Source of the DNA: an uncultured Rhodospirillaceae bacterium
GTDB lineage: Bacteria; Pseudomonadota; Alphaproteobacteria; Micavibrionales; UBA2020
Direction of reading: 5' to 3'
Length of the DNA stretch: 64,000 bases
Assembly: GCA_964476835.1 (NCBI GenBank)
Contig: CAYZCE010000004.1
Coordinates: 16,244 to 80,243, forward strand
Positions within the stretch are counted from its first letter, which is position 1; each line of letters opens with the position of its first letter. The notes beneath the pieces were generated by a model. That model had not been told where the DNA came from. It ran no database searches and saw nothing but the letters and a program-made list of their open reading frames with translations. The position numbers and the translations under genes are program-made. Positions 3,665-60,884 of this stretch are shown here, one piece after another.

Positions 3665-6600
3665 ATGGTACAGTTCAACAAGCTCAAGCTTTCCGGCTTC
3701 AAGTCCTTCGTCGAACCAACCGAACTTGAAATCGGCCCGGGTCTCACCGGCATCGTCGGCCCCAACGGCTGCGGCAAGTCGAACCTCGTCGAGGCGCTCC
3801 GCTGGGCGATGGGCGAAAACTCGCCCAAGCGCATGCGCAGCTCGGGCATGGACGACGTCATCTTCGCGGGCACCGACCAGCGCCCCGCGCGCAACACGGC
3901 GGAAGTCATCCTGACGCTCGACAACACCGACCGCACCGCGCCCGCCGAAATCAACGACAGCGACGAACTCGAGATCTCCCGCAAGATCGAGCGCGAAGTC
4001 GGCTCCGTCTACAAGGTCAACGGCAAGAGCGTCCGCATGCGCGACGTCCAGCTGCTGTTCGCCGACAGCTCTATCGGCGCGCACTCGCCGGCTCTCGTGA
4101 GCCAAGGCCGCGTCGCCGACATGATCAACGCCAAGCCGCAACAGCGCCGCATGGTGCTCGAAGAAGCCGCCGGCATCTCCGGCCTGCACGCCCGCCGCCA
4201 CGAGGCGGAACTGAAGCTGCGCGCCGCCGAAACCAACCTGACCCGCGTCGAAGACGTCCTCGGCTCGATGAACACGCAGCTTGAATCCCTCAAGAAGCAA
4301 TCGCGTCAAGCATCCCGCTACCGCAACCTTTCCACGCACATCCAGGTCGCCGAAGGCGGCCTGCTCTACAAGCGCTGGATGGAAAGCACCACCGCCGTCA
4401 CCGAAGCGCTCGCCGCGTTCGAAGCCGCCGAGAGCATCGTGCGCGAGAAGACCCTCTCCGTCACCCAGCTGACAACCGCGCAGACCGAAGCCGCCGCCGC
4501 CGTGCCGCAGCTCCGCCAGAACGAAGCCGAAGCCGCCGCCGCGCTGCAACGCCTCAAGCTCGCCTACGGCAGCCTTGAGACCGAAGAGCGCCAGGTCATC
4601 GAAGAGCGCACGAAGTCCGAGCAGCTGCTCACCCAGTACAGCAACGACGTCAGCCACGAAAACGTGCAAAAGTCGGAAGCCAACGACACCGTCACCCGCC
4701 TGAACGATGAGCACGCAACGCTGGAACAAGACAGCGAACAGCAGGCCGAGAACGAAGAAAGCGCCCGCCTCCTCGCCGAAGAACAGCAGCAATCGGTCGA
4801 AAAGTCCGAAGGCGAAGTCTCCGAACTGACCGAAGAAGTCGCCGCTCAGGACGCAGCCCGCAACGCCGCGCAACGCGCCCTGCAAGACCTCGAGCGCCGC
4901 CACGCGCACATCGTCTCGCGCAAGGAAAGCCTCGAGAACGAATACGCGACCCTCCTCGCCAACACGCCCGCCAAAGCGCAGTTGGAAGAAGTCGCGGCCG
5001 CGATCGTTGTCTCTGAAGAAACCTATGCCCAAGCCGTCGCCGCCTTCGACGCCGCCGAAGCGACCCGCGCCACTGCTGAAACCGCGCAATCGGATGCGAC
5101 CGAGCAGTTCCAGTCCGTGCAAAAGACTTTCGGCCAACTGACCGCCGAAGCCGACGCGCTGCGCCGCATCCTGAAGAGCCAGCAGTCCGACTACCAGCCT
5201 GTCCTCGACCTGCTTGCGGTCGAAGCCGGCCTTGAAAAGGCCATGGCCGTCGCGCTCGGCGACGACCTGCAAGCGACGCTCGACGGCTCCGCGCCGATCT
5301 TCTGGCGCGAACTGCCGGAATTCTCGGCATCCGCCACCCTGCCCGCACAAGCCAAGCCGCTGACGCAATTCGTCCAAGGCCCCGCCGCGCTGTCGCGCAC
5401 GCTGTCGCAAATCGGCGTCGTCGATACGGCTGACATCGCCGAAGCGATCATGTCCGAACTGCAGCCCGGCCAGTGCCTCGTCACGCTCGACGGCGGCGCA
5501 TGGCGTTGGGACGGCCTCGTCGTCACGCCGAACGCAGAAAACGCCGCCGCGATCCGCCTGCAGCAAAAAAACCGCCTCGCCGACCTCGACGCCGAGATCG
5601 CCGTCGTTCAGGTAAAGCTGGATGAAGCGCGTGCGACGCTTGACGCCGCCCGCCAAGCCCGCAGCGCCGCCATCGACGCCGTCAACGCCGCGCGTCAAGC
5701 ATTCAAGTCGTCCGAGGAAACCCTCAACGGCCAGCGCCGCAGCCACGCACGCCTGACCGCGCAGCTGAGCGAAGTCACCGCCCGCCTCTCCGGCCTCGAA
5801 GCCTCCATCGGCAACGCGGCTGAAGAAGTCGAAGCGCTGTCCGGCCAGATCGTAGAAGCGCAAACGGCTTATGCCGCACTCCCCGATACCGTCGAGAGCC
5901 GTGAAAAGATCGTCGCGCTCAAGACCTCCCTCGGTGAAGCGCGCCAAACGCTGGCCGAGCGCCAGGCCTCCTACGCGGAAATCCGCCGCGCCGGCGAAGC
6001 CCGCAATCGTCGCATGGCGCAGATCACCGACGAAGTCGGCGTCTGGAACTCCCGCCTCGAGCGCATCGACCTGCGCGTGATCGAGCTCGAAGAACGCATC
6101 CAGCAGGCGCAAGACGTCATCAACCGCCTCGCCGAGCGTCCCGCGCAAATCGCGCAGGAGAAGCAGGGCCTGATGAGCCACATCTCCGACGCCGAGCAAA
6201 AGCGTCAGGATGCCGCCGACGTGCTGGTCTCCGCCGAGAACACCTCGAACGAGCTGGCGCGCGAGTTGCGCGCGTCCGAAAGCGCCCTGTCCGACGCCCG
6301 CGAAGCCCGCGCCATGGCGCAGGCGAGCGTCAACACCTCGCAGCACACCCAGGCGGGCATCGAGGCGACCATCCATGAAAAGTTCGCCTGCACGCCCGAA
6401 GAAATGGTGGCGCGCCTCGAACTCATCGTCGCCGAACTCCCCGGCATCGAGGAACTGGCGCAAAAGCTCGACCGCCTCGTCCGCGAGCGCGACAACATGG
6501 GCCCCGTGAACCTGCGCGCCGAAGTGGAAAGCCAGGAAATCACCGAGCAGATGACCACGATGCAGACCGAGCGCGACGACCTTGTCCAAGCGATCGAGAA

Positions 6601-7123
6601 GCTGCGCGAAGGCATCAACACCCTCAACAAGGAAGCGCGCCAGCGCCTGCTGTCGGCCTTCGACACGGTCAACGCGCACTTCCAGAAGCTGTTCACCCGC
6701 CTCTTCAACGGCGGCTCCGCGCACCTCAAGCTGATCGAGGCGGACGACCCCCTCGAAGCCGGCCTCGAGATCTTCGCGCAGCCCCCGGGCAAGAAGCTGC
6801 AAGCCCTCTCGCTCCTCTCGGGCGGCGAGCAGACGCTGACCTCCATCGCGCTGATCTTCGGCATGTTCCTCACGAACCCCGCCCCGATCTGCGTCCTCGA
6901 TGAAGTTGACGCCCCCCTGGACGAAAGCAACGTCGACCGCTATTGCATGCTCCTCGAAGACCTCGTCAAGGAATGCCGCACCCGCTTCATGGTCATCACC
7001 CACCACCGCATGACCATGGCGCGCATGGATCGCCTCTACGGCGTCACCATGAGCGAACGCGGCGTGTCGCAATTGGTCTCCGTCGACCTCAAGCAACACG
7101 ACCTGAACCTCGAAGCTGCGTAA
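3665..7123 (+). CDS. smc: chromosome segregation ATPase SMC
   Basis: 1152 aa; Walker A 'GPNGCGKSN'; long coiled coils; signature 'LSGGEQTL'; Walker B 'CVLDEVDAPLD'. Confidence 0.95.
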   Translation: MVQFNKLKLSGFKSFVEPTELEIGPGLTGIVGPNGCGKSNLVEALRWAMGENSPKRMRSSGMDDVIFAGTDQRPARNTAEVILTLDNTDRTAPAEINDSDELEISRKIEREVGSVYKVNGKSVRMRDVQLLFADSSIGAHSPALVSQGRVADMINAKPQQRRMVLEEAAGISGLHARRHEAELKLRAAETNLTRVEDVLGSMNTQLESLKKQSRQASRYRNLSTHIQVAEGGLLYKRWMESTTAVTEALAAFEAAESIVREKTLSVTQLTTAQTEAAAAVPQLRQNEAEAAAALQRLKLAYGSLETEERQVIEERTKSEQLLTQYSNDVSHENVQKSEANDTVTRLNDEHATLEQDSEQQAENEESARLLAEEQQQSVEKSEGEVSELTEEVAAQDAARNAAQRALQDLERRHAHIVSRKESLENEYATLLANTPAKAQLEEVAAAIVVSEETYAQAVAAFDAAEATRATAETAQSDATEQFQSVQKTFGQLTAEADALRRILKSQQSDYQPVLDLLAVEAGLEKAMAVALGDDLQATLDGSAPIFWRELPEFSASATLPAQAKPLTQFVQGPAALSRTLSQIGVVDTADIAEAIMSELQPGQCLVTLDGGAWRWDGLVVTPNAENAAAIRLQQKNRLADLDAEIAVVQVKLDEARATLDAARQARSAAIDAVNAARQAFKSSEETLNGQRRSHARLTAQLSEVTARLSGLEASIGNAAEEVEALSGQIVEAQTAYAALPDTVESREKIVALKTSLGEARQTLAERQASYAEIRRAGEARNRRMAQITDEVGVWNSRLERIDLRVIELEERIQQAQDVINRLAERPAQIAQEKQGLMSHISDAEQKRQDAADVLVSAENTSNELARELRASESALSDAREARAMAQASVNTSQHTQAGIEATIHEKFACTPEEMVARLELIVAELPGIEELAQKLDRLVRERDNMGPVNLRAEVESQEITEQMTTMQTERDDLVQAIEKLREGINTLNKEARQRLLSAFDTVNAHFQKLFTRLFNGGSAHLKLIEADDPLEAGLEIFAQPPGKKLQALSLLSGGEQTLTSIALIFGMFLTNPAPICVLDEVDAPLDESNVDRYCMLLEDLVKECRTRFMVITHHRMTMARMDRLYGVTMSERGVSQLVSVDLKQHDLNLEAA

Positions 7124-7151
7124 AGAGGGCTGTTTCCGTCCTCTTTCCTGT

Positions 7152-7183
7152 AAAAAAGCCGCCTTGCAAAGGGCGGCTTTTTT
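7152..7183 (+). terminator. rho-independent terminator after smc
   Basis: A-tract, stem GCCGCC / GGCGGC with 8-nt loop, then TTTTTT. Confidence 0.7.
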
Positions 7184-7199
7184 GCGCTAGGACTCTTGT

Positions 7200-8141
7200 A
7201 TGTCCAACGCCTCCTACATCGTCGCCGCGCTTTACAAGTTCGCCCCCCTCGCCGACCTGCCGGCGATGCAGGCGGAGATCTTGGACGTCTGCAAGCGGAA
7301 CAACATCTGCGGCACCCTGCTGCTGGCGCAAGAGGGCATCAACGGCACCATCGCGGGCAGCCGCGAAGGCATTGACGAGACGCTGGCGTTCCTGCGCTCT
7401 TATCCCTACCTGCACGATCTTGAACACAAGGAGTCGACCGCGACAGAAGAGCCGTTCTACCGCATGAAGGTGCGCCTCAAGAAAGAGATCGTCACCATTG
7501 GCCTGCCCGAAGTCGATCCCAACGAGACGGTCGGCACCTACCTCGAGCCGGAGGAATGGAACAAGGTCATCTCCGACCCCGACACCGTCGTCATCGACAC
7601 GCGCAACGACTACGAAGTCAAGATCGGCACCTTCAAGGGCGCGGTCGACCCGCATACCAAGACCTTCCGCGAATTCCCGAACTATGTGCAATCGCACTTC
7701 TCGCCGGACAAAAACAAGAAAGTCGCCATGTTCTGCACCGGCGGCATCCGCTGCGAGAAGGCGTCGGCCTACATGAAGAATCTGGGGTTCGAGGAGGTCT
7801 ATCACCTCAAGGGCGGGATCCTTAAATACCTCGAGACCGTGCCGAAAGAGGAAAGCCTGTGGGAGGGCGATTGCTTCGTCTTCGACCAGCGCGTGTCAGT
7901 CAGGCATGGCCTGCATCAGGGCGATTACGTGCTCTGCCCCTCTTGCCGCCATCCGGTCGGGCCCGAGGACCGCAAGAGCGCGAAGTATATCGAGGGCGTC
8001 GCCTGCCCCAATTGCCACGACGCGCTGACGCCTGAAAAACGCGCCGCCGCCGCCGAGCGCCAGCGCCAGATCAAGCTGGCCGAAGCGCGCGGGGAAAAGC
8101 ACATCGGCGCGCTATACGCGGCCGAGGGCGACGAGGATTAA
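7200..8141 (+). CDS. trhO: rhodanese-domain tRNA uridine(34) hydroxylase (YceA/TrhO family)
   Basis: 313 aa; rhodanese active-site loop '[11 protein letters not shown]'; C-terminal Cys cluster 'CPSCRHP...CPNCHD'. Confidence 0.8.
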
Positions 8142-45848: not shown

Positions 45849-47447
45849 TTAACTTTCCCTCTCGATACGTTGGACGACATCGACGATTTTGTCCTTTTTC
45901 CCGCGTTTTGGGAATAGGGCTTTTAGCGTGTTCAGCGTGAAAATGCCGAAAAAGTGCAGGCCGGCGAAGTACACGAGGCCGCCAGCCGTCACCAGCGAGC
46001 CAAGACCTGCCACGCGCGCCATCGTCCCGCCCGCGAGCATCCCGCCGACTGCATATTGCGTCATGCCCCACAGCACCGCGGCCATGATCAGGCCGCTGAG
46101 CAGGATCAGGCACGCGCGCTTGAGCGAATTGGCCGGAAGGTCGAGGTGGCGTTTCTTGTGCAATCCGTGCAGCAGCAGGCCGACGTTGACCCATGCCGTG
46201 ATGCCCGTCGCCAGCGCGATGCCGACGTGGTGCAGCGGGTGGATCATGGCGAGCGCCAACCCGGTGTTGATCGCCGCGCAGACGATCGCGAACTTGACCG
46301 GCGTCACCGTATCCTCGCGCGCGAAGAAGGCGGTCGAGAACACGCGCGCGATGACATAGGCCGGAAGCCCCATCGAATAGGCCATCAGCGCATGCGCGGA
46401 CTGGAGGCTGGAGGCATGGTCGAACTCGCCGCGCTCGAACAAGACGCTCATGATCGGCCCCGCAATGACGATCAACGCGATGGCGGCAGGCAGCGAGAGG
46501 ATCAGGCCGGTCTCAAATCCGAGGCCGAAGAGCCGCGTCGACTCCCCCTTCTGCTCCGACTTGAGCGCGCGCGACAGCATGGGCAGCAGCGCGGTGCCGA
46601 TGGCAGCGCCGATGACGCCGAGCGGCAGCTGATACAGACGATCCGCATAATACAGGAACGAGATCGAGCCGACCGGCAGCAGCGACGCCAGAATCATGTC
46701 GATAAAGAGGTTGATCTGCGCCGCACCGGAGCCGATGGCGCCCGGCAGCATCAAGCGGAACAGCTTGCGCACGCGCGGCGTCAATCGCGGCAGGCGCGGG
46801 CGCAGGAAATGCCCGATCTGCACGTAGTTAATCAGCACCCAGATGAACTGCACGATACCTGCAGCGGCAAGACCCCACGCCAGCGCATGGCCGCCCGTCT
46901 CGAACCAGTCCTTGCCGAACAGCAGCGAGCACATCATCATGCCGTTGAAGAAGATCGGCGCCGCCGCGAAAGGCCCGAAGCGGTCGAACGAGTTGAGCAC
47001 GCCGCCGAGCAGCGACGTCAGCGACATCATCAGGATATAAGGGAACGTGATGCGCGAGAATTCGAGCGCGAGTTCATAGCGCTGCGGATCGCCGTGCACG
47101 CCGGGGGCAAGTACGTAGAGCACCCACGGCATCGCGATCATGCCGAGGATGGTGAAAGGGATCAGCACGGCGAGCATGACGGCCTGCGCTTCTTCGGCGA
47201 AACTGAGCGCTTCCTTCTTGCCCTCATCCGAGAGCAGCTTGGAGAACATCGGCACGAAGGCGACGCTGAATGAGCCTTCCGCGGTGATGCGGCGGAAGAA
47301 GTTCGGCAGTTTCAGCGCGATGAAGAACGCATCCGCCACCGGGCCGGCGCCCAGAAAGTTGGCGATCAGCACATCGCGCACGAACCCCAGCACGCGGCTG
47401 ACCATCGTGAACCCGCCGACTGTTGCGACTGCTTTGAAAAACGACAT
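45849..47447 (-). CDS. murJ: lipid II flippase MurJ
   Basis: 'MSFFKAVATVGGFTMVSRVLGFVRDVLIANFLGAG'; 14-TM MOP-type body. Confidence 0.92.
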   Translation of the reverse strand: MSFFKAVATVGGFTMVSRVLGFVRDVLIANFLGAGPVADAFFIALKLPNFFRRITAEGSFSVAFVPMFSKLLSDEGKKEALSFAEEAQAVMLAVLIPFTILGMIAMPWVLYVLAPGVHGDPQRYELALEFSRITFPYILMMSLTSLLGGVLNSFDRFGPFAAAPIFFNGMMMCSLLFGKDWFETGGHALAWGLAAAGIVQFIWVLINYVQIGHFLRPRLPRLTPRVRKLFRLMLPGAIGSGAAQINLFIDMILASLLPVGSISFLYYADRLYQLPLGVIGAAIGTALLPMLSRALKSEQKGESTRLFGLGFETGLILSLPAAIALIVIAGPIMSVLFERGEFDHASSLQSAHALMAYSMGLPAYVIARVFSTAFFAREDTVTPVKFAIVCAAINTGLALAMIHPLHHVGIALATGITAWVNVGLLLHGLHKKRHLDLPANSLKRACLILLSGLIMAAVLWGMTQYAVGGMLAGGTMARVAGLGSLVTAGGLVYFAGLHFFGIFTLNTLKALFPKRGKKDKIVDVVQRIERES

Positions 47448-47497
47448 TTGCCTTGCTCGCCCCTTGGTGTACAGTACAGGCAATCATAGCACCGCCC

Positions 47498-48253
47498 ATG
47501 AAAAGCAAAAACAAAGAATCTGAATGGTTTGGCTACAAACGCGTCGACCCCCGCGCCAAGGCGCGGCTGGTGGAAAGCGTGTTTTCCTCCGTCGCCGACC
47601 GCTATGACCTGATGAACGACCTGATGTCGGGTGGCGTGCACCGTCTATGGAAAAACCGCCTGATCTCGATGCTGCATCCCACGCCGCGCAAGAAGCTGCT
47701 CGACGTCGCGGGCGGCACGGGCGACATCGCGTTCCGCTACCGCAAGCGCGCGGGCGACGGCGCCGAGATCACCGTCTGCGACATCAACCGCGAGATGCTG
47801 CGCGTCGGGCAAGACCGCGCGATCGACCGCGGCTACGTCAAGGGCTTCACGTGGGTCGAGGGCAATGCCGAGAAGCTGCCCTTCGCCGATAGCAGCTTCC
47901 ACCTCTACACAATCTCCTTCGGCCTGCGCAACGTGCCGAAAATCGACGATGCGCTCGAAGAGGCCTATCGCGTGCTGAAACCCGGCGGACAGTTCTTCTG
48001 CCTCGAGTTCAGCCGCATGGTCAACCCGACACTGCGCAAGCTCTACGACGACTATTCCTTCCACGTCATCCCCAAGATCGGCGAGATCGTGGCGCAGGAC
48101 CGCGAGAGCTACCAGTACCTCGTCGAAAGCATCCGCCAGTTCCCCGCGCAGGACGAACTGAAAAAGCGCATGGAACGCGCCGGGTTTGAAAAAGTCGGCG
48201 TCACCAACCTCACCGGAGGCATCGCCGCGATCCACTGCGGGATCAAGCTCTAG
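47498..48253 (+). CDS. ubiE: ubiquinone/menaquinone biosynthesis C-methyltransferase
   Basis: 'FSSVADRYDLMNDLMSGGVHRLWK', SAM motif 'LLDVAGGTGDIA'. Confidence 0.92.
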   Translation: MKSKNKESEWFGYKRVDPRAKARLVESVFSSVADRYDLMNDLMSGGVHRLWKNRLISMLHPTPRKKLLDVAGGTGDIAFRYRKRAGDGAEITVCDINREMLRVGQDRAIDRGYVKGFTWVEGNAEKLPFADSSFHLYTISFGLRNVPKIDDALEEAYRVLKPGGQFFCLEFSRMVNPTLRKLYDDYSFHVIPKIGEIVAQDRESYQYLVESIRQFPAQDELKKRMERAGFEKVGVTNLTGGIAAIHCGIKL

Positions 48254-48722
48254 ATTTCAGGAATTCTTGCGCCGCGCGGATGTCGACCTGCTGGTGGTCG
48301 CCGTCGAGCAATGACTTGTAGGCGATCAACCGCGCCGGCGCGATGACCGGGACAGTCAGGCCGAACAAATCCATCGGCCGCGCGTCCTCCACCCCGAACG
48401 GGATATCCACCCACGCTGTGCCGTCAAAAATCTTCGTGGCGTCGCCTGCGCCGATATCCACTTCCTGCCCGTGATGGTCGAGGGTGATGAGCGGCAGGTC
48501 CCATCTCTTGTCGACATAGCGCGCAGGACCGAAGACCGCATACGCCGCCACCTCGGGCGCAACACGCGCGAAAGCTGACGCCGGAATATCGAGGTCGATA
48601 TCGTTGAGCGCACGCGGCGATCCGTAGGCCTTCGCCGCCAGACCGCCCGTCACCACGAATGGCACCTGATACCGCCGTAACAGAGAAATGATCCACTGAA
48701 ATGTCTTGGCCGTATCCTTCAT
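48243..48722 (-). CDS. nucleotidyltransferase-fold protein (pol-beta superfamily)
   Basis: 159 aa; 'VVTGGLAAKAYGSPRALNDIDLDI' matches the G[GS]-x9-13-DxD minimal nucleotidyltransferase pattern. No HEPN-type partner seen. Confidence 0.55.
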   Translation of the reverse strand: MKDTAKTFQWIISLLRRYQVPFVVTGGLAAKAYGSPRALNDIDLDIPASAFARVAPEVAAYAVFGPARYVDKRWDLPLITLDHHGQEVDIGAGDATKIFDGTAWVDIPFGVEDARPMDLFGLTVPVIAPARLIAYKSLLDGDHQQVDIRAAQEFLKSRA

Positions 48723-48839
48723 GAAATAAAATATATCATTATCAAATACTTATCGGCAACCCCGGCCTGCTTTTTCCACTTGCGTTATGGATAATATTTA
48801 TATAAATTATAAAGGCTTAACGCATAGCCCGGATCACGC

Positions 48840-49439
48840 ATGATGACGTTTGAACAACAACTGAAAAAGGTCGCCGCTTCGCTGACGGCAGGCAACCAAA
48901 AAATTGCGTTGGTGATCATCGACGTGCAGCGCGATTTTTGCGACCCCACGTCCTTTGGCTCGCGGCGCGGCAATGCGGAAACCAAGCAAGTCGCCACGCG
49001 CATCGCCGAGCTGGCGCCGGAATTCCGCAAGGCGGGCATTCCCGTCTACGCCGTCTATTTCGGCATCTTCGACAAGAAATCCGAAGACATCGACTTCTAC
49101 CAGTTCAAGCCCGCACCTGAAGACAAGATCGTCCGCAAGAACGCCAATTCCGCCTTCAAGCACGGCGGCCTCAAGCCGGCGCTGGAACAGGACGGTCGCA
49201 CCTTGCTGCTCACTTGCGGCTTCAACCTCAACGCCTGCGTATACAAGACCGTCCTCGATGCACGTGAACGCGGCTATGCGGTCACACTGCTGCGCGATCT
49301 CTGCGGCAACGACAACAACCACAAGCCCGAGGACGAAAATCCGCAAGTTTTCGTCGACGTCATGGCCCACAACGGCGTCGCCATCGAGCAATCCGCCGAT
49401 GTGCTGAAACAGCTGACCGCAAAGAGGTCCGCGCCATGA
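48840..49439 (+). CDS. isochorismatase-family cysteine hydrolase, paralog 1
   Basis: Asp 'LVIIDVQRDF', Lys 'RKNANSAF', Cys 'GFNLNACV'; conserved 'DLCGN'. Confidence 0.8.
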   Translation: MMTFEQQLKKVAASLTAGNQKIALVIIDVQRDFCDPTSFGSRRGNAETKQVATRIAELAPEFRKAGIPVYAVYFGIFDKKSEDIDFYQFKPAPEDKIVRKNANSAFKHGGLKPALEQDGRTLLLTCGFNLNACVYKTVLDARERGYAVTLLRDLCGNDNNHKPEDENPQVFVDVMAHNGVAIEQSADVLKQLTAKRSAP

Positions 49440-50065
49440 GCGATTTCACCGCCCGCCTGAAACGCGTCCTCGACTTCTTCACGCCGGAAAATCTGAAGAA
49501 GCAGACCATCCGTTATGAAGGCGACACCGCGCTGCTGGTGATCGACGTGCAGAAGGAATTCTGCGCGGAACAAAACGTCATCGACCGGCTGCTCTTGCAC
49601 GACCGCTCCGGCAATCGAGAAACCGAGGAAGTGGCGGAAAAAATCCAGTCAATCGTTCCCGAATTCCGCAAAGCCGGCATCCCCGTTTACGTCGTCTATT
49701 GCGACTTTGCCGCTTCCAGACGGCCGAACTTTCATAAGTTCAAGCCCGCATCCGGCGACATGATGATCCCAAAATCGACTAACTCGGCCTTCGCAGTACA
49801 GACCTTCAAAGACATCCTGCACCAAGAAGGCCATGAGAACTTGCTGGTCTGCGGCTTCAACCTCAACGCCTGCGTCATGGATACGGCGATAGACGGCGTC
49901 AGGCTCGGCTTCAATGTTTCCGTCCTGCGCGATCTCTGCGGCAACAATAGTCCCAACGATGACGAACCCGCTTATTGCGTCAATGAGATGCGCAACAGCG
50001 GCGTGACGATCGAGGAGGACGTTTTTGATATTCTCAAGAAGCTTCCCCGGAGGAAACTGCCATGA
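49436..50065 (+). CDS. isochorismatase-family cysteine hydrolase, paralog 2
   Basis: 'LLVIDVQKEF', 'PKSTNSAF', 'GFNLNACV', 'DLCGN'; ATGA overlap with paralog 1. Confidence 0.8.
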   Translation: MSDFTARLKRVLDFFTPENLKKQTIRYEGDTALLVIDVQKEFCAEQNVIDRLLLHDRSGNRETEEVAEKIQSIVPEFRKAGIPVYVVYCDFAASRRPNFHKFKPASGDMMIPKSTNSAFAVQTFKDILHQEGHENLLVCGFNLNACVMDTAIDGVRLGFNVSVLRDLCGNNSPNDDEPAYCVNEMRNSGVTIEEDVFDILKKLPRRKLP

Positions 50066-50604
50066 GCCGTAAAAGCGCCTTCAACAACGCCGCCCTCCTT
50101 GTCGTCGACGTGCAGCGCGAGTTCTGCGACCCCACGTACCATCCGCGCGGCAGCTTTGAGACGAACATGATCGCGCAAAACATCGCCAAGCTCGTGCCGC
50201 AATTCCGCAAGGCGGGCCTCCCCGTCTATGCCGTCCATTTCGGACTGCCCGTGAATAACATCTATGAAGCCCATTTCCACCACTTCAAGCCCGCGAAGGA
50301 AGACACGCTGATCTCCAAGCTGTCCAATTCCGCCTTCGGCCGGCGCGGCAACCAGACGGCGAAGACCCTGCACAAGGACGGACGCCAGACGCTGCTGGTC
50401 TGCGGCTTCAACCTCAGCGGCTGCATCAAGGACACGGTGCTGGACGCGCGCCGCGCCGGCTTCGATGTCTTCGTCATCACCGACCTGTGCGGCAACGGCA
50501 ACACCAACCACGACTGCGACGCCGCGGCCGACCTTGCCGACATGGTAAAAAAAGGCGCCGTGGCCGACACCGCGCAGAACATCCTGAAACGCCTGACCCA
50601 TTGA
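50062..50604 (+). CDS. isochorismatase-family cysteine hydrolase, paralog 3
   Basis: 'LLVVDVQREF', 'SKLSNSAF', 'GFNLSGCI', 'DLCGN'; ATGA overlap with paralog 2. Confidence 0.8.
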   Translation: MSRKSAFNNAALLVVDVQREFCDPTYHPRGSFETNMIAQNIAKLVPQFRKAGLPVYAVHFGLPVNNIYEAHFHHFKPAKEDTLISKLSNSAFGRRGNQTAKTLHKDGRQTLLVCGFNLSGCIKDTVLDARRAGFDVFVITDLCGNGNTNHDCDAAADLADMVKKGAVADTAQNILKRLTH

Positions 50605-50605
50605 C

Positions 50606-52486
50606 ATGACGTTCCGGCAGGACATCAACGCGCTGCGCGCCATCGCCGTCGTGTCGGTGCTGCTCTACCATTTCGGCGTGCCGGGATTTGCGGGCGGCTT
50701 CGTCGGCGTCGACGTCTTCTTCGTGATTTCGGGATACCTGATGACCGGCATCATCCTCGGCGGGCTGGCCGAGGGGCATTTCTCGCTGCTGCGTTTCTAC
50801 CTTGCCCGCGCGCGCCGCATCATGCCGGCGCTGGCGGTGCTGGTGACCGCCCTGCTCGCGCTCGGCTGGTTCTTCCTGCCGCCGTCGGATTATGCGGGGC
50901 TTGGATTGCATGGCGCGTCGTCGTCCTTGTTTTTCTCGAACTTCGTCTACAAGGGCGAGGACGGGTATTTCGACGTGCCTTCGCGCACGAAATGGCTGCT
51001 GCACACCTGGTCGCTCTCGGTCGAATGGCAGTTTTACCTGATCTATCCGCTGCTGCTGGTCTTCTTCCGCCGGCATGGGCGCACCATCGCGGCGCTCGGC
51101 GCCTTGTCGCTGCTCGTCTCCATCTGCACCTCGGCGTCGATCCCCAGCTTCGCCTTCTACCTTTTGCCGACGCGGCTGTGGGAAATGGCGCTCGGCGGGC
51201 TGATCGTCGCGCTACCCAAGGCAACAACGCGCGCGGGTCGCTGGCCGGGTTACGCGCTGATCGCGGCGGCGATCTTCTGTCTCAGCCACGACGACACATG
51301 GCCGGGATATCTCGCGCTGCTGCCGACGCTCGGCACCGCGCTGGTGATCTGGTCGAACGGCAGCGCGAAACTCGAGCAAATGCGACCGGTGCAGGCGATC
51401 GGCACGTGGTCTTATTCGCTCTACCTCTGGCACTGGCCTTTCGTCGTGGCGCTCGGCTATGCGGGGCTGTCGCAGGATCCCGCCGCCATCGCGAGCGCGA
51501 TGACGCTCTGCCTGATCGCCGCCATTGCCTCTTATACCTTCGTCGAGGCGCCGTTGCGTGAACGAAAAATCGGCTGGCTGCCGCTCGGCCTGATGACGCT
51601 GCTGCCCGCCGCGCTCGGCCTCGCCCTCTGGCTGGCGCACGGCGTGCCGGCGCGCGTCAGCCCCGCCGCACTCGCTTTCGACCAAGCTGCGCAAGAACAT
51701 TCCTCCAACGCGGACCGCTGCGCTTTCGACAAGAAGACCCACCGCCTCGGCGCCAAATGCAAACCGGCCGAAGCCGCTTTCGCCGTCTGGGGCGACAGCC
51801 ATGCGGGCGCAGTCTACAGCGCCGTCAAGGCCGCCAGCGGCGGACGCCGCGGCGTGCTGGTCACCTATTCTTCCTGCCCGACGATTTTCGGCGCGTACGT
51901 CGTGACGAAGCGCGACAAGACGATCTGCCCCGGTTTCAACGACGCCGCGCTGGCGGCGCTCAAGACGCTGCCACCGCACGCACCGATCATGATCGTCAAC
52001 CGCTACGGCTACTATCTCTCGGGCCGCGACACCTCGACCGACCGCCGCATGATGCTCGGCTTCGATGTGCCGCAGGCAGGCAAGGATGGCACCGCGCTGT
52101 TCTCCGACACGCTCACGCAGAGCCTGTGCCGCATCAAACATGAAACTGGCCGCTCCGTCTATGCGCTCAAGCCCGTGCCGGAAATGGGGATCGACATTCC
52201 ACGCACGCTGGCGCGCCGTGTGATGATCCTGCCCGCGCAACCCTTGCCTGCGCTTGCGCACCCGCTGGCGGAATATGAAGTGCGGCAGAAAGTTGTGCTG
52301 GAGACACTCGCCCGCGCACATGCGGAATGCGGCATCGGCGTCATCGACACGCCCGCGGCGCTATGCGCGGACGGCACCTGCCAGAGCCACGACGGCGCGG
52401 AAGTCTTTTACTTCGACGACAACCATTTGAGCGAAGCCGGGAACAAGAAGCTCGTCCCGCTGCTCAAGGCCATCTTCAAGAAATAA
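50606..52486 (+). CDS. acyltransferase-3 (OafA/YrhL-type) membrane O-acyltransferase with C-terminal SGNH-like domain
   Basis: 'INALRAIAVVSVLLYHF...GVDVFFVISGYLM'; about 10 TM; C-terminal 'WGDSHA...DDNHLS' SGNH-type segment. Starts 1 nt after the paralog 3 stop. Confidence 0.85.
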   Translation: MTFRQDINALRAIAVVSVLLYHFGVPGFAGGFVGVDVFFVISGYLMTGIILGGLAEGHFSLLRFYLARARRIMPALAVLVTALLALGWFFLPPSDYAGLGLHGASSSLFFSNFVYKGEDGYFDVPSRTKWLLHTWSLSVEWQFYLIYPLLLVFFRRHGRTIAALGALSLLVSICTSASIPSFAFYLLPTRLWEMALGGLIVALPKATTRAGRWPGYALIAAAIFCLSHDDTWPGYLALLPTLGTALVIWSNGSAKLEQMRPVQAIGTWSYSLYLWHWPFVVALGYAGLSQDPAAIASAMTLCLIAAIASYTFVEAPLRERKIGWLPLGLMTLLPAALGLALWLAHGVPARVSPAALAFDQAAQEHSSNADRCAFDKKTHRLGAKCKPAEAAFAVWGDSHAGAVYSAVKAASGGRRGVLVTYSSCPTIFGAYVVTKRDKTICPGFNDAALAALKTLPPHAPIMIVNRYGYYLSGRDTSTDRRMMLGFDVPQAGKDGTALFSDTLTQSLCRIKHETGRSVYALKPVPEMGIDIPRTLARRVMILPAQPLPALAHPLAEYEVRQKVVLETLARAHAECGIGVIDTPAALCADGTCQSHDGAEVFYFDDNHLSEAGNKKLVPLLKAIFKK

Positions 52487-52494
52487 GCGGAAAC

Positions 52495-53635
52495 TTAGTC
52501 GAGATCCTCATAAGCGACCTTCTTGTCGCCCTTCTTGTCGGTCAGCTTCTGCGCAAGCGAAGCTTCGAGGAAGGGGTCGAGGTCGCCGTCGAGCACGCCC
52601 TGCGTGTCGGAGGTTTCGTGGCCGGTGCGCAGGTCCTTGATGAGCTGGTACGGATGCAGCACGTAGGAGCGGATCTGGTGGCCGAAGCCGATATCGGTTT
52701 TTTGAGCTTCCGCCTCGTCGCGCAGGGCTTCGCGTGCTTTCACTTCGCGCTCGTACAGTTTCGCCTTCAGCATCTTCATGGCGGCGGCGCGGTTTTGGTG
52801 CTGCGAGCGCTGGTTCTGGCAGGCGACGACGATGCCGGTCGGCAAGTGCGTCAGGCGGACGGCCGAATCCGTCTTGTTGACGTGCTGGCCGCCCGCGCCG
52901 CCGGAGCGGTAGGTGTCGACGCGCAAGTCCTTGTCCTCGACCTTGATGTCGATGTTTTCATCGACCACCGGCGTGACGGAGACGGAGCAGAAACTGGTAT
53001 GGCGGCGCGCATTGCTGTCGAACGGCGAGATGCGCACGAGGCGGTGCACGCCGGATTCCGATTTCAGCCAGCCGTAGGCGTTCTCGCCAGGCACTTCAAG
53101 CGTCGCGCTCTTGATGCCGGCGACTTCGCCGTCCTGCTTGTCCATCAGGGAGACCTTGAAGCCGCGCTGGTCGCACCAGCGCAGGTACATGCGGAGCAGG
53201 ATGCCCGCCCAGTCGCAGGCCTCGGTGCCGCCCGCGCCCGCGTTGATCTGCAGGTACGCGTCGTTGCCGTCCAGCTCGCCCGAGAGCAGGCTGGCGAGGC
53301 CGCGCTTGGCAACTTCGTCCTTGAGCGTGAAGAGGGATTTCTCGGCGTCGGCAACGATGGAATCGTCGTTCTCCGCCTCGCCCAGCTCGATCATGCCGAC
53401 GTTGTCGTCGAGCGAAGATTGCAAACCCTTGATCGCACCGATCTGGCTATCCAGCCGGGTGCGTTCTTTCAGGAGCTTCTGCGCGCGCTCGGGATTTTCC
53501 CAGAGCGTCGGGTCTTCGGCGAGGGAATTCAGTTCGGAGAGGCGATGGAGGGCACGGTCCCAGTCAAAGATGCCTCCTCAGCAGCTCCAGCGAGGACTTG
53601 ATGTCGCTCACCGCTGCTAGGATTTCTGCTTTCAT
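52495..53635 (-). CDS. prfB: peptide chain release factor 2 (requires programmed +1 frameshift)
   Basis: Frame 0: 53635-53567 encodes [23 protein letters not shown], then in-frame TGA. +1 frame: 53565-52495 continues [12 protein letters not shown]... and contains 'SPF' and '[13 protein letters not shown]'. Confidence 0.93.
53563..53578 (-). promoter_or_regulatory. prfB autoregulatory +1 frameshift site
   Basis: Minus strand reads AGGAGG CAT CTT TGA C: internal SD-like element, slippery CUU, UGA stop followed by C. Confidence 0.9.
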
Positions 53636-57568: not shown

Positions 57569-59065
57569 TTACAAATCCTTAATAACCTTCAACACCTGCT
57601 GCGCGCACATATATCCCGCAGTCCCGGCGATGGAGCCGGCCGGGTAAGCCCCTGCCCCGCAATAGAAAAACCGCTCATGCTTTCCAAGCCGGTAAAAGCC
57701 GCGCGCCGGGTCCTGCGCATAGGTGCGGTCGGCGAAGGTCTGGCCGTCGCACAGCTCGATGTGGTCGATGTTGCCTTGCGGGAAGTAGAACGTCTCGCGC
57801 AGGTCGCCGGGCGTGTAGAGGATGCTGGTGGCGAGATCCTGCGGGTTCTCGATCTTGTCGAGGATCAGGCGCTCCACCTGCTTGCGCACCGCCGTCAGCG
57901 CGCGCCCATTCTTCGCCAGCGTGAGGTTCTTGAAGAAGACGGAGACGATTTCATACTTGCGCTTGCCGCCCATTTTCCGGTCGGCCGCGCCTTCGCAGTA
58001 AATCTCGAAATAGCCGGGCGTATAGTCGCGGCCCTTGAGGTCACGGAAGGATTTCTCGAGCGCATTTAACGACGGCGCCGCCGCGATGAAGCGCATAGCG
58101 GTGTCGAAATCCTTAGCACCCGTGTCGCCCTTCCAGCGCACGCGCTTGTCGAACAGCAGCACCAGCTTGCCGCTGGTGCCGAGCATCTTCTTGCGCGCGA
58201 CTTTCTTTTCCAGCGGCGCGTCGCCCGCCAGCTTCGATGCCAGCAAGGGATCGGTCGCGAAGATCACGACGTCCGCCTTCTGCCGCTGCACGCGCCCGCC
58301 CTTGCGCCATGTGACCTCGCCGGTCGCCGGATCTGCCTTCAGCACATCCGCCCCCGCCACCGTCTTCACGCCGAGCGCGCGGTTGAGCTTGTCGAGTTCC
58401 TCCGCGATGCGCCAGATGCCGCCCTTGACGAAACCCCACTCCCCGCCGAACACGCTGCCCGACGACATCAACGGGATGGAGAACGCCGAATACCGGCTAT
58501 CCAGCGGCACCGGCCCGCTCTCCGTCGCCGAGACGCTGAAGAATAGCTGCGCCGCGTCGCTGGTGAAATAATGCTCGACCAGTGCGCGCGCGCTGCCGGT
58601 CACCCACAGTTTCGTCATCTCGCGCCCGAGCGCCTTTTCCGCTGCTTTCAACGAGGGTGCTTCGCCTTTGCGGTAGCCTTTCCGCAGGAAGGCGGACACC
58701 TTCGCCATGTCGCGCTCGAACCGCGCGAGGTCGCCGCGTTCGCCGTGCGCGCGGCGCAAGCCTTCCGCCGTGACAAAACATTCCTTGCCCCCCGACCACA
58801 GGATCGTCGGATGCGCGGGCGTCATCAGGCGCAGCTTTTTCGCCAGCCCCGTCTCTTGGAGGACGAAATCCTGCATGAAGCCCAGCACGCTCGCGCCGTT
58901 GGGGAAGGCATAGGTCTTGCCCTTGCGCGTGATCTCCGTCACCGCGCACGCGCCGCCCGCGCGCGGCTTCTTCTCCAGCACCGTGACGTCGTGCCCGCCG
59001 CGGCGCAGGTAATTCGCCGCGACAAGTCCGTTGATCCCCGCACCGATAATGACGATCTTTTTCAT
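57569..59065 (-). CDS. FAD/NAD(P)-dependent oxidoreductase, phytoene desaturase (CrtI)/amine-oxidase family
   Basis: 'KKIVIIGAGINGLVAANYLRRGGHDVTVLEKKPRAGG' dinucleotide fold; C-terminal 'YCGAGAYPAGSIAGTAGYMCA'. Confidence 0.8.
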   Translation of the reverse strand: MKKIVIIGAGINGLVAANYLRRGGHDVTVLEKKPRAGGACAVTEITRKGKTYAFPNGASVLGFMQDFVLQETGLAKKLRLMTPAHPTILWSGGKECFVTAEGLRRAHGERGDLARFERDMAKVSAFLRKGYRKGEAPSLKAAEKALGREMTKLWVTGSARALVEHYFTSDAAQLFFSVSATESGPVPLDSRYSAFSIPLMSSGSVFGGEWGFVKGGIWRIAEELDKLNRALGVKTVAGADVLKADPATGEVTWRKGGRVQRQKADVVIFATDPLLASKLAGDAPLEKKVARKKMLGTSGKLVLLFDKRVRWKGDTGAKDFDTAMRFIAAAPSLNALEKSFRDLKGRDYTPGYFEIYCEGAADRKMGGKRKYEIVSVFFKNLTLAKNGRALTAVRKQVERLILDKIENPQDLATSILYTPGDLRETFYFPQGNIDHIELCDGQTFADRTYAQDPARGFYRLGKHERFFYCGAGAYPAGSIAGTAGYMCAQQVLKVIKDL

Positions 59066-59094
59066 GCCCGCTAGGCTATCAGGACTGCGGACAA

Positions 59095-59128
59095 GAAAAA
59101 AGCCCGGGGCTTGCGCACCGGGCTTTTT
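59095..59128 (-). terminator. rho-independent terminator downstream of cspA (bidirectional shape)
   Basis: AAAAAA-AGCCCGG...CCGGGCT-TTTTT. Confidence 0.7.
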
Positions 59129-59147
59129 CCACCTGTATCAGGATGGC

Positions 59148-59351
59148 TTACGCCGCCTTGAGGTTGGTAGCCGAATCGCGACCCTTTTCGCTCGCGATGT
59201 CGTAGCTGATCTTTTGACCTTCGTTCAGGCTACGCAGGCCTGCGCGTTCGACCGCGCTGATGTGAACGAATACGTCCGAACCGCCGTTGTCAGGCTGGAT
59301 GAAACCGAAACCCTTTTGGGCGTTGAACCACTTAACAGTACCTTGAGCCAT
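59148..59351 (-). CDS. cspA: cold-shock protein (CspA family)
   Basis: '[18 protein letters not shown]' (RNP1) and 'DVFVHIS' (RNP2). ATG 59351 follows AAGGAGG. Confidence 0.93.
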
Positions 59352-59756
59352 ATTGGCCTCCTTGTAAAACGCACTTTCGTGCATGACGCCCCGCCGGCAA
59401 CCATTGCCCGCTGAGCATTATCCGAAAATAGCGATGTCTTGAGAAAGGCCCGTAAGGCAGCAAACAAGTCAGAACTTAAAATCTCGAATAGCCACACTTT
59501 AGGCCTTTTCGCGGCAATAGCAAGAGATATTTTTCAGAAAACATAATAGGGTTGATATCGCTCACAATTCCAGCATCCGTAAAATAAAGACCCGCGCACC
59601 GCGCATCCATGGTATATTGAGATATTAGAGACATGAATTCCTGCGCTTTCTTAATTAAGCGACGGACTGTCCGACCTCTTTCGACACCATGCCGTATCCA
59701 CGCGACACGCCCCACCGGGTGTGAACGAGCGCTATTTTTTTCAAAGGAATAAACCA

Positions 59757-59990
59757 ATGACCAAAGATCAATTCCACGACAGCGCCAAGGACAAAACCGC
59801 CGCCGGAAAAAGCACCACCACGACAGCCGCCGCTCCTCCACGCCCACCCAGCCCACAACCGATGATGAGCATGCACTTGACCCCCAAACCACCCTTCGGC
59901 ATGCCCGTGATGCCAGTGGCGACAAAGGTCAAACTGCTGCCGACGGCAGTGCAGGTGGTGAAGAGAGTGGAAGAGGATAATCAGGAATAA
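59757..59990 (+). CDS. hypothetical small Pro/Thr-rich protein (77 aa)
   Basis: AGGA RBS about 8 nt upstream; GC3-biased codons inside a lower-GC region. No motif. Confidence 0.4.
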   Translation: MTKDQFHDSAKDKTAAGKSTTTTAAAPPRPPSPQPMMSMHLTPKPPFGMPVMPVATKVKLLPTAVQVVKRVEEDNQE

Positions 59991-60048
59991 AGCTTGCCAA
60001 ACATTCCTACATGAGAATTACGCTTGTGGACTTCGTAGAACTAAAGGC

Positions 60049-60138
60049 TGGCGGAAGGGGTGAGATTCGAACTCACGGTGAACTTACGCCCACGCTAGTT
60101 TTCAAGACTAGAGCCTTAAACCGCTCGGCCACCCTTCC
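60049..60138 (-). tRNA. tRNA-Ser (anticodon UGA)
   Basis: Hand-folded: acceptor GGAAGGG/CCCTTCC; anticodon arm CTAGT-CTTGAAA-ACTAG; long variable arm; T-arm GAGTTCGAATCTC; encoded CCA. Confidence 0.9.
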
Positions 60139-60194
60139 GCGTTCGTCTTTCGTATCGGTTTTGCTATAGCGCGTCAACTGCCGCGAAGGGCTGT

Positions 60195-60257: not shown

Positions 60258-60884
60258 ATGAAAACCCATATTTTTATCCTTCCCCTCGTCTCCCTCCTTG
60301 CCCTTGCGCCTTATGTGGCGCAGGCAGCGAATAATGCCAGCAACTTCACGCCCGCGCGCGGCAGCGCCGAAAAGGCAATGGGCACAGGCGCCCCGAACTA
60401 TGTCATGCCCAATACGGGTCCGAGCGGCCTGAGCTATAGCGCGAGCGCGCCGTCGACCGGCAATACGAGCAGCACCGGCACGACGACGAATACAGGCACA
60501 AAAACAACGGGCGGCGCGACGACCACAACGGGCTCGGGCCTCATGCCCAATACGGGTCCGAGCGGCCTCAGCTATAGCGCCAGCGCGCCGAACGGGGCGG
60601 CAAACGCCAATGCGAACGCGCAGCAATTCAGCAGCTATGTTTACAGCCGCTGGGATACCAACCAAGACGGCACGATCAGCCGCTCGGAATGGAACAACAT
60701 CGACCCGAAATGGCAGGGACAGCGCACAACGGCCAACTTCAGGGCGCTGGATACCAACCACAACGGCGTGCTCGATTCAGCGGAAACACAGGCCTATTTC
60801 TCCAACAACAGCATGTATATGCTCTACGACACCAACCACGACGGGGTGATCGACAGCACGGAAGCGCAGAAATTCCCCAAGTAA
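60258..60884 (+). CDS. secreted protein with duplicated 16-aa motif and three C-terminal EF-hand loops
   Basis: Signal peptide 'LPLVSLLALAPYVAQA'; two copies of 'MPNTGPSGLSYSASAP'; EF-hand loops 'DTNQDGTISRSE', 'DTNHNGVLDSAE', 'DTNHDGVIDSTE'. Confidence 0.75.
   Translation: MKTHIFILPLVSLLALAPYVAQAANNASNFTPARGSAEKAMGTGAPNYVMPNTGPSGLSYSASAPSTGNTSSTGTTTNTGTKTTGGATTTTGSGLMPNTGPSGLSYSASAPNGAANANANAQQFSSYVYSRWDTNQDGTISRSEWNNIDPKWQGQRTTANFRALDTNHNGVLDSAETQAYFSNNSMYMLYDTNHDGVIDSTEAQKFPK
60405..60590 (+). repeat. 48-bp direct repeat pair inside the EF-hand gene
   Basis: 60405-60452 and 60543-60590 differ at 2 of 48 positions; 138 bp (46 codons) apart, in frame. Confidence 0.85.

Follow-up and report, generated by a model that had tools for sequence, protein, structure and literature searches.

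How a tandem array of three hydrolase genes came to lie between two core genes, and whether the genes that accompany it share its function, is the question raised by a locus in a 64,000-nucleotide (nt) stretch of DNA from an uncultured Rhodospirillaceae bacterium of the Micavibrionales (assembly GCA_964476835.1, contig CAYZCE010000004.1, positions 16,244 to 80,243 of the forward strand; hereafter the window). Three adjoining genes, here called IsoA, IsoB and IsoC, encode isochorismatase-like proteins and are followed on the same strand by a gene for a membrane acyltransferase. A first-pass annotation of this DNA had proposed either a hetero-oligomeric hydrolase or a series of amide/ester hydrolysis steps feeding O-acylation of the envelope; the observation on which it was built is accurate, and its significance was over-read. 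To judge from the comparisons below, the array is a commonplace product of local expansion of a gene family among Micavibrio-like bacteria, and all its copies are probably active. The reading that is favoured here, with moderate confidence, is that of a locally amplified, lineage-specific cytoplasmic cysteine amidohydrolase whose copies would be co-expressed isozymes.

Three tandem cysteine hydrolases

The array consists of IsoA (48840-49439, 199 amino acids (aa)), IsoB (49436-50065, 209 aa) and IsoC (50062-50604, 180 aa), all on the + strand. Each open reading frame (ORF) was matched by the Pfam model PF00857 (Isochorismatase) with 88-90 bits against a cutoff of 27 and with E-values between 3e-25 and 9e-25 (3.3e-25 for IsoA, 8.5e-25 for IsoB and 4e-25 for IsoC), and pairwise identity among the three was 42-47%, so that their description as paralogous members of the isochorismatase family stands, at E ~1e-25 for each. 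No further hydrolase copies were found in the 64-kb window, and no signal peptide or membrane segment was seen in the hydrolases. Alignment of the three proteins gave 61 invariant columns, which include D28, K100 and C133 (IsoA numbering). The same three residues were invariant in all 120 aligned members of the subfamily, where the invariant columns are D28, Q30, F62, D95, K100, S104, F106, G127, C133 and D153. In profile searches against PDB sequences, the subfamily motifs DvQ, K..(N/D)SAF and CGfnlnaC fell on the triad residues of cysteine hydrolases of solved structure, the Asp, Lys and Cys of 3irv, 3ot4 and 1im5 corresponding to D28/K100/C133 at the sequence level. The Asp/Lys/Cys triad named in the first-pass annotation is therefore kept, at that level, in all three paralogues. 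Of the motif contexts given for it, the first was corrected, as IsoC reads VDVQ in place of the 'IDVQ' quoted. A 'DLCGN' motif, offered as a further shared feature, was rejected as a special second-cysteine motif, as its Cys varies within the subfamily, whose consensus over the 120 members is DLTGN.

IsoA, the only one of the three hydrolases to be modelled, gave an AlphaFold2 model from the 120-sequence alignment with a predicted local distance difference test score (pLDDT) of 91.4 and a predicted template modelling score of 0.89. The model, together with a Foldseek search, placed IsoA in a three-layer alpha/beta fold with a parallel beta-sheet. Foldseek returned 140 PDB matches at E <= 1e-3, the top 50 of which were all isochorismatase-like hydrolases. 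Template modelling (TM) scores of 0.65-0.73 at 15-26% identity were obtained for YecD, PA1677, TrtA, BiuH, RutB, maleamate amidase, CSHase and PncA. The use of NCBIfam equivalog models led to no closer assignment: the cutoffs for PncA, RutB, BiuH, YcaC and PRK11440 were not reached (17-41 bits vs 174-378), and a specific enzyme assignment was rejected on this basis. No His able to build the metal site of PncA was found among the invariant or near-invariant columns of the 120 subfamily members. On these alignments the three proteins are placed in the cysteine hydrolase branch, as an uncharacterised subfamily. Because the Cys nucleophile is retained, and from what is known of the family, we infer amidase chemistry for them. 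By analogy with the family, the substrate would be a small molecule with an amide, ureido or carbamoyl group, whose carbonyl Cys133 would attack to give a thioester, with Asp28 as general base and Lys100 stabilising the intermediate, and water would then free the acid.

The junctions between the genes were read directly from the sequence and were found to be as the first-pass annotation had reported them. The IsoA stop and IsoB start overlap in an ATGA at 49436-49439, as do the IsoB stop and IsoC start at 50062-50065, and the IsoC stop codon (TGA, 50602-50604) is separated by 1 nt (c) from the ATG of the acyltransferase at 50606. Shine-Dalgarno-like sequences were seen 8-12 nt 5' of the IsoB start (AGAGG) and ~7 nt 5' of the IsoC start (GGAGGA), and none was obvious before the acyltransferase. 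As a test of a single transcription unit, the + strand was inspected for terminators before 50606 and no convincing one was found, while the overlaps and an upstream element (described below) are present. We infer that IsoA, IsoB and IsoC are co-transcribed and translationally coupled.

Differences among the paralogues are concentrated in loops and at the N-terminus. IsoC is without the N-terminal helix common to IsoA and IsoB, and indels among the three occur at four sites, namely the loops after beta-1, beta-2 and beta-5 and the region after beta-3, as judged from the alignment and the IsoA model. As these indels are all on the side of the sheet formed by its C-terminal edge, which in this fold bears the substrate pocket, the three copies are most plausibly isozymes with a diverged substrate range. 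The placement of the indels may fit such divergence, the fit being a weak one because loops vary in any protein.

Relatives, upstream element and turnover of copies

A profile search recovered at least 413 related clusters (90% identity) at E <= 1e-5, and the named relatives, all metagenome-assembled genomes (MAGs), were labelled Micavibrio sp. or Alphaproteobacteria bacterium. Among species-representative genomes, ten loci were found with members 45-56% identical, and identity dropped in the next matches to 34% and then to under 30%. Where a relative has a single copy, that gene resembles IsoA most, at 45-56%. When the window proteins were mapped onto the related loci (given L numbers here), about 15 of these showed one order of genes, namely (a 241-aa protein), MurJ, ubiE and then one to three hydrolase copies. 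The step from ubiE to hydrolase was seen in L003/L006, L004, L007, L008, L010-L015, L086, L087, L090, L093 and L094. In L003/L006, L008 and L015 the MurJ-family gene 5' of ubiE lies on the opposite strand and is ~25% identical to the MurJ of the window (45849-47483), which suggests that the flippase gene at this site was replaced or rearranged; the adjacency of ubiE and hydrolase is kept in these loci.

Copy number differed among relatives, and so did what lies downstream. A single hydrolase copy with no acyltransferase-3 (AT3) gene behind it was found in L003, L007, L008, L010-L014 and L090, and two copies, again with no AT3 gene downstream, in L004, L009, L093 and L094, L009 being a 2.4-kb contig on which the two hydrolase genes stand alone. 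Three copies were found in the window and in three further loci. L086, a 3.5-kb contig, has the same arrangement as the window (ubiE, an antisense 159-aa ORF, three hydrolases and AT3) with the same 4-nt overlaps. In L087 a different pair of antisense genes separates ubiE from three hydrolases, which are followed by prfB and DJ-1 with no AT3, and the three copies of L095 do not adjoin ubiE and are likewise without AT3. All close multi-copy arrays are tightly joined, their genes overlapping by 4 nt or 1 nt or standing 1 nt apart. In L013, L014, L087 and L090 the hydrolases, whether one or several, are directly followed by prfB. L013 and L014, which have the flanks most similar to those of the window (PrfB 83-84%, MurJ 66-67% identical), show the simple arrangement of ubiE, one hydrolase and prfB with no AT3, and this arrangement is ancestral-looking. 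Tandem copies were also seen in L016, a more distant alphaproteobacterial MAG, at 6449-7749; these two hydrolases are 30-37% identical to those of the window, lie >100 nt apart and do not adjoin ubiE, so that tandem duplication has occurred outside the close subfamily as well, without tight coupling.

The recurrence of a hydrolase at the same place downstream of ubiE across the lineage bears directly on the suggestion that the block is slightly foreign. GC content at third codon positions (GC3) was 0.77 for IsoA, 0.73 for IsoB and 0.74 for the antisense nucleotidyltransferase gene between ubiE and IsoA, against 0.80-0.91 for the flanking genes, and was typical for IsoC (0.86) and the acyltransferase (0.84). 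Within the hydrolase-acyltransferase block, the lower GC reported earlier is thus real for the intergenic region, IsoA and IsoB, and does not extend to IsoC or the acyltransferase. The deviation is mild and gives no sign of recent transfer, and with the same post-ubiE position occupied in ~15 loci the interpretation as a foreign island was rejected.

The hydrolases have an upstream element of their own. In the divergent, AT-rich stretch between genes at 48723-48839, which had been taken for a promoter region, a simple sigma-70 consensus scan gave no + strand site, and it was solely through comparison of loci that a promoter-like element, TTGCGT-TATGGATAATATTTATA-TAAATT, was detected there at 48780-48808 on the + strand, starting 60 nt 5' of the IsoA start codon. 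Aligned upstream regions of the relatives gave the consensus TTGAYT, a near-invariant TATG, N13 and TATAAN (also rendered TTGACTTATG...TATAAT). The element lies 37-82 nt (mostly 60-75) 5' of the first hydrolase gene in 15 upstream regions of related loci and precedes both hydrolase units of L095, where the array does not adjoin ubiE. The pattern is unique in the window (0.03 occurrences expected by chance), and its strict form was found 11 times in 10 related loci, always 5' of a hydrolase, and not once in ~70 unrelated loci. Positions in relatives include L004 7933-7947, L007 7879-7893, L010 7841-7855, L011 7866-7880, L015 2755-2769, L093 4290-4304, and L095 3292-3306 and 4938-4952. Such conservation suggests that the element acts as a promoter or operator, in support of the earlier claim that the hydrolases have their own promoter region. 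The TATG directly after the -35 hexamer is near-invariant and the spacer is A-rich; as this conservation exceeds what a plain sigma-70 spacer needs, the TATG may mark an operator, no regulator gene adjoining it. A search of the whole window with Rfam at gathering threshold found only two tRNAs, and so no riboswitch or other known RNA in the leader.

The history of the copies was followed in a neighbour-joining (NJ) tree with 200 bootstraps. IsoC pairs with the third copy of L086 (100%; about 72-73% identical) and IsoB with the first (100%; 64% identical), the second L086 copy being sister to this IsoB pair (96.5%), and IsoA has no L086 orthologue in the tree. Orthologues of IsoB and IsoC were found in L086 alone, whose set is therefore B, B' and C against the A, B and C of the window. 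L004 and L009 have second copies that group in a separate clade (100%), and the three copies of L087 group with the single copy of L090 (64%). In a best-match analysis, positions 2 and 3 of L087 each had closer counterparts on other contigs, and some duplications therefore predate speciation. From these placements the hydrolase copies seem subject to birth and death and do not form a fixed A/B/C set. Between the window and L086, amino-acid identity was 89% for ubiE with a nonsynonymous divergence (dN) of 0.06. The corresponding values were 64% and 0.26 for IsoB and about 72-73% and 0.20 for IsoC, with ratios of nonsynonymous to synonymous divergence (dN/dS) of ~0.21 and ~0.31, respectively, within an overall range for the hydrolases of 0.2-0.36, dS being near saturation. 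All hydrolase copies are under purifying selection, yet their protein sequence diverges at 3-4 times the rate seen for ubiE. The proposed history is one in which a hydrolase gene with its own conserved promoter, downstream of ubiE in Micavibrio-like Alphaproteobacteria, would have been gained and lost repeatedly to leave one, two or three copies.

An alternative explanation for the tight joining is that the three paralogues form one mixed oligomer, with coupling setting equal amounts of each and with interface active sites built from different paralogues. Proteins of the isochorismatase-like fold assemble as obligate homo-oligomers whose active sites lie close to the subunit interfaces, and the overlaps or 1-nt gaps in every close multi-copy array, together with the kept triad and the purifying selection on all copies, would all suit such an assembly. 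Against this, copy number is one, two or three, with single-copy genomes common (L013 and L014 included), stable sets of A/B/C orthologues were not found, and IsoC is without the N-terminal helix that IsoA and IsoB share. An obligate mixed oligomer is accordingly regarded as rather unlikely. More speculative still, and rated distinctly improbable, is a hydrolase battery specific to Micavibrio-like (predatory) Alphaproteobacteria, which would be governed by an operator overlapping the promoter (the TATG and A-rich spacer) and amplified either for mixed oligomers with combinatorial active sites or to meet changing prey-derived amides. If that were true, the array would be a lineage-defining trait and not a housekeeping enzyme.

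The steady position behind ubiE could also reflect a role for the hydrolase in quinone biosynthesis alongside UbiE, for instance in processing a precursor of ubiquinone or menaquinone. The order of ubiE and hydrolase is kept in ~15 loci, even where the MurJ-type gene is a different one on the other strand (L003, L008, L015) or where the downstream gene differs (dUTPase or prfB). This link is considered very improbable, as several observations run counter to it. The conserved upstream element speaks against simple co-transcription of hydrolase and ubiE, antisense genes intervene between the two in the window, L086, L087 and L090, and the three copies of L095 lie away from ubiE altogether. Furthermore, the retained Cys would, from knowledge of the family, point to an amidase and not to vinyl-ether chemistry, and within so narrow a clade vertical inheritance explains the synteny. 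No paper was found that ties isochorismatase to Micavibrio, to tandem paralogues or, in Alphaproteobacteria, to ubiE, and the genome paper of M. aeruginosavorus ARL-13 mentions none of these enzymes.

The acyltransferase and the other neighbouring genes

The gene that follows IsoC (50606-52486, + strand) encodes a 626-aa membrane O-acyltransferase of the OafA/YrhL type with AT3 and SGNH domains (PF01757 Acyl_transf_3, E 4.5e-30, 105 bits; PF19040 SGNH, E 7.6e-44, 151 bits) and multiple hydrophobic segments in residues 1-343. The catalytic motifs known for such enzymes from work on OafA are R-X10-H in the first transmembrane segment, FFxISG, the GDS of the SGNH domain and DxxH; in the window protein they are represented by R11-X10-H22, VFFVISGY (37-44), GDSH (396-399) and DDNH (604-607). 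Given its position, the initial proposal was that sequential amide or ester hydrolysis supplies or edits the substrate of this enzyme and so leads to O-acylation of an envelope glycan. The 1-nt spacing and shared orientation, the lack of any promoter signal of the acyltransferase's own, the intact catalytic motifs, and the same junction in L086, where the ORF after the hydrolases starts MKFRQDINALRAVAV... and is the acyltransferase orthologue, are what favours it. A search of the neighbourhoods nevertheless found three hydrolases with an acyltransferase elsewhere only in L086. AT3 was absent from every other related locus, including the triplets of L087 and L095 and the closely flanked L013 and L014, and a conserved hydrolase-acyltransferase module was rejected on this evidence. 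Homologs of the acyltransferase number in the thousands at about 40% identity or more; the closest (49%) adjoins citrate synthase, an unrelated context, the contexts of the other nearest homologs are likewise unrelated, and in the Micavibrio MAG GCA_028283745.1 an AT3 homolog and a hydrolase lie on different contigs. AT3-SGNH enzymes take their acyl group from cytoplasmic acyl-CoA and require no amidase. A pathway of hydrolysis and O-acylation is therefore the least probable of the readings considered. As for the statement that the arrangement matches no described pathway, the subfamily is indeed uncharacterised, but evidence that the four genes form a pathway was not found.

Between ubiE (47453-48253, + strand; NCBIfam NF001242, E 2e-111, above cutoff) and IsoA lies the antisense ORF for a minimal nucleotidyltransferase with a TM1012-like fold (48243-48722, - strand, 159 aa). 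No Pfam match was above cutoff, Aminoglyc_resit reaching 15.7 bits against 21, and the family of 28 members is covered by no Pfam model; its profile matched TM1012 (E 3.5e-6) and LnuA (E 4e-3). The AlphaFold2 model (pLDDT 96.4) was closest in Foldseek to 2ewr (TM1012; TM-score 0.79-0.81), followed by LnuA, MenT1 and ANT(2''). In the G[GS]...DxD motif of the family, G26, G27 and D43 are invariant and D41 near-invariant. No partner gene adjoins it, in agreement with its earlier description as a solitary minimal nucleotidyltransferase. This gene occupies the position only in the window and L086 (963-1442), and the gap between ubiE and the hydrolase promoter holds varied antisense genes elsewhere: a 148-aa ORF and an alpha/beta hydrolase in L087 (4053-5336) and an alpha/beta hydrolase in L090 (7002-7790). 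In three of the four loci, the first of the inserted genes runs 4-11 nt into the ubiE 3' end; in L087 the gene that does so is the 148-aa ORF. Since the acyltransferase and the antisense 159-aa ORF are restricted to the window and L086, the conserved unit is the hydrolase gene or genes alone. The AT3-SGNH acyltransferase and the antisense nucleotidyltransferase are, from their distribution, most likely later accessory insertions into a permissive gap between core genes, and the acyltransferase would borrow the hydrolase promoter. As none of the five proteins was matched by PADLOC, a reading as anti-phage defence was rejected.

Several points weigh against the favoured account of an amplified amidohydrolase with isozyme copies. 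Solved or characterised relatives are only 15-26% identical, so that the word 'amidase' rests on the retained Cys and on family knowledge. A structural neighbour, PA1677/CrcA, binds a regulator as a Crc-binding antagonist and does not act via known catalysis (PMC10213629), and because this neighbour works by protein binding, the hydrolases may have a non-enzymatic role. The deep nodes of the NJ tree are poorly supported (2-44%), and independent expansions are not separable from one ancient expansion followed by many losses. Finally, because the 1-nt spacing to the acyltransferase is kept in L086, some selected co-expression of the acyltransferase with the hydrolases is possible.

Should the amplified-amidohydrolase account be correct, it would add to the isochorismatase-like cysteine hydrolases a subfamily that is uncharacterised and evolves fast, and would document both a small hot spot for accessory genes in the gap between ubiE and prfB and a clean case of tandem birth and death with conserved translational coupling. 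It would open no new pathway or mechanism, and it corrects the tempting annotation of a hydrolase that feeds O-acylation. The conserved upstream element could be used to find the regulator, and the analysis singles out the proteins worth expressing in a screen for substrates.

Downstream, the block is bounded by the convergent gene prfB (52495-53635, - strand; TIGR00020, E 2.5e-140), so that its placement between ubiE and prfB was upheld by both NCBIfam matches. The classical programmed +1 frameshift site, AGGAGG-CAT-CTT-TGA-C, is present in prfB at ~53563-53578 on the - strand; the ATG at 53635 is followed by 23 codons and then the site, with an in-frame TGA as codon 24, and the listed ORF 52495-53424 is therefore without the N-terminus. 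Further along the window, a low-GC stretch at 59000-60140 (0.49-0.54) contains a cspA-like cold-shock gene (59148-59384, - strand), which is preceded by a long non-coding region and lies next to tRNA-Ser(tga) at 60049-60138; this looks ordinary. A secreted-looking protein is encoded at 60258-60884 (+ strand), with a signal-peptide-like N-terminus and two copies of the internal repeat MPNTGPSGLSYSASAP; it also has a tract rich in Thr and Gly, and its C-terminus bears EF-hand-like D-x-N-x-D-G motifs.

Comparison with known systems

For the accessory genes, the likeness to known proteins is one of fold and motif. TM1012, LnuA, ANT(2'')-Ia and the MenT toxins share the fold and the GG...D-x-D motif of the antisense nucleotidyltransferase but are only 12-20% identical to it. 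The acyltransferase has both Pfam domains and the R-X10-H, FFxISG, GDS and DxxH motifs in common with OafA/YrhL-type enzymes, and differs from them in standing behind a hydrolase array, a position peculiar to the window and L086.

Among proteins related to the hydrolases, the solved cysteine hydrolases YecD of E. coli (1j2r), PA1677/CrcA of P. aeruginosa (8cib), PSPPH_2384 (3irv) and PP1826 (4h17) have the same fold (Foldseek probability 1.0, TM-scores 0.65-0.73), the same Asp/Lys/Cys positions and a similar size, and are likewise soluble, single-domain proteins. Identity to them is only 20-26%, no substrate is defined for any of them, and they are not known from coupled tandem arrays.

True isochorismatases (EntB, PhzD, VibB and AngB) belong to the same superfamily and fold, but they are without a Cys nucleophile and cleave a vinyl ether. 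In the subfamily of IsoA, IsoB and IsoC, by contrast, the Cys is invariant, and no siderophore or phenazine genes lie nearby, the neighbours of the array being murJ, ubiE, prfB and a DJ-1 gene; the three proteins were not classed with the true isochorismatases.

The best mechanistic analogue is the Cys-nucleophile amidase chemistry of the triuret and biuret hydrolases TrtA/BiuH (6xix, 6xjm, 6azo), RutB (8bkd), the maleamate amidohydrolase NicF/Ami (3uao, 4l07), N-carbamoylsarcosine amidase (1nba) and nicotinamidase PncA (1im5), with which the triad aligns. The genomic contexts of their pathways are absent around the array, and the equivalog scores of the three proteins lie far below the respective cutoffs (BiuH 27-40 against 370 bits, RutB 21-39 against 378, PncA 34-41 against 174 (NF008623) and YcaC 17-28 against 310; for RutB, BiuH, YcaC and PRK11440 together, 17-40 against 195-378).

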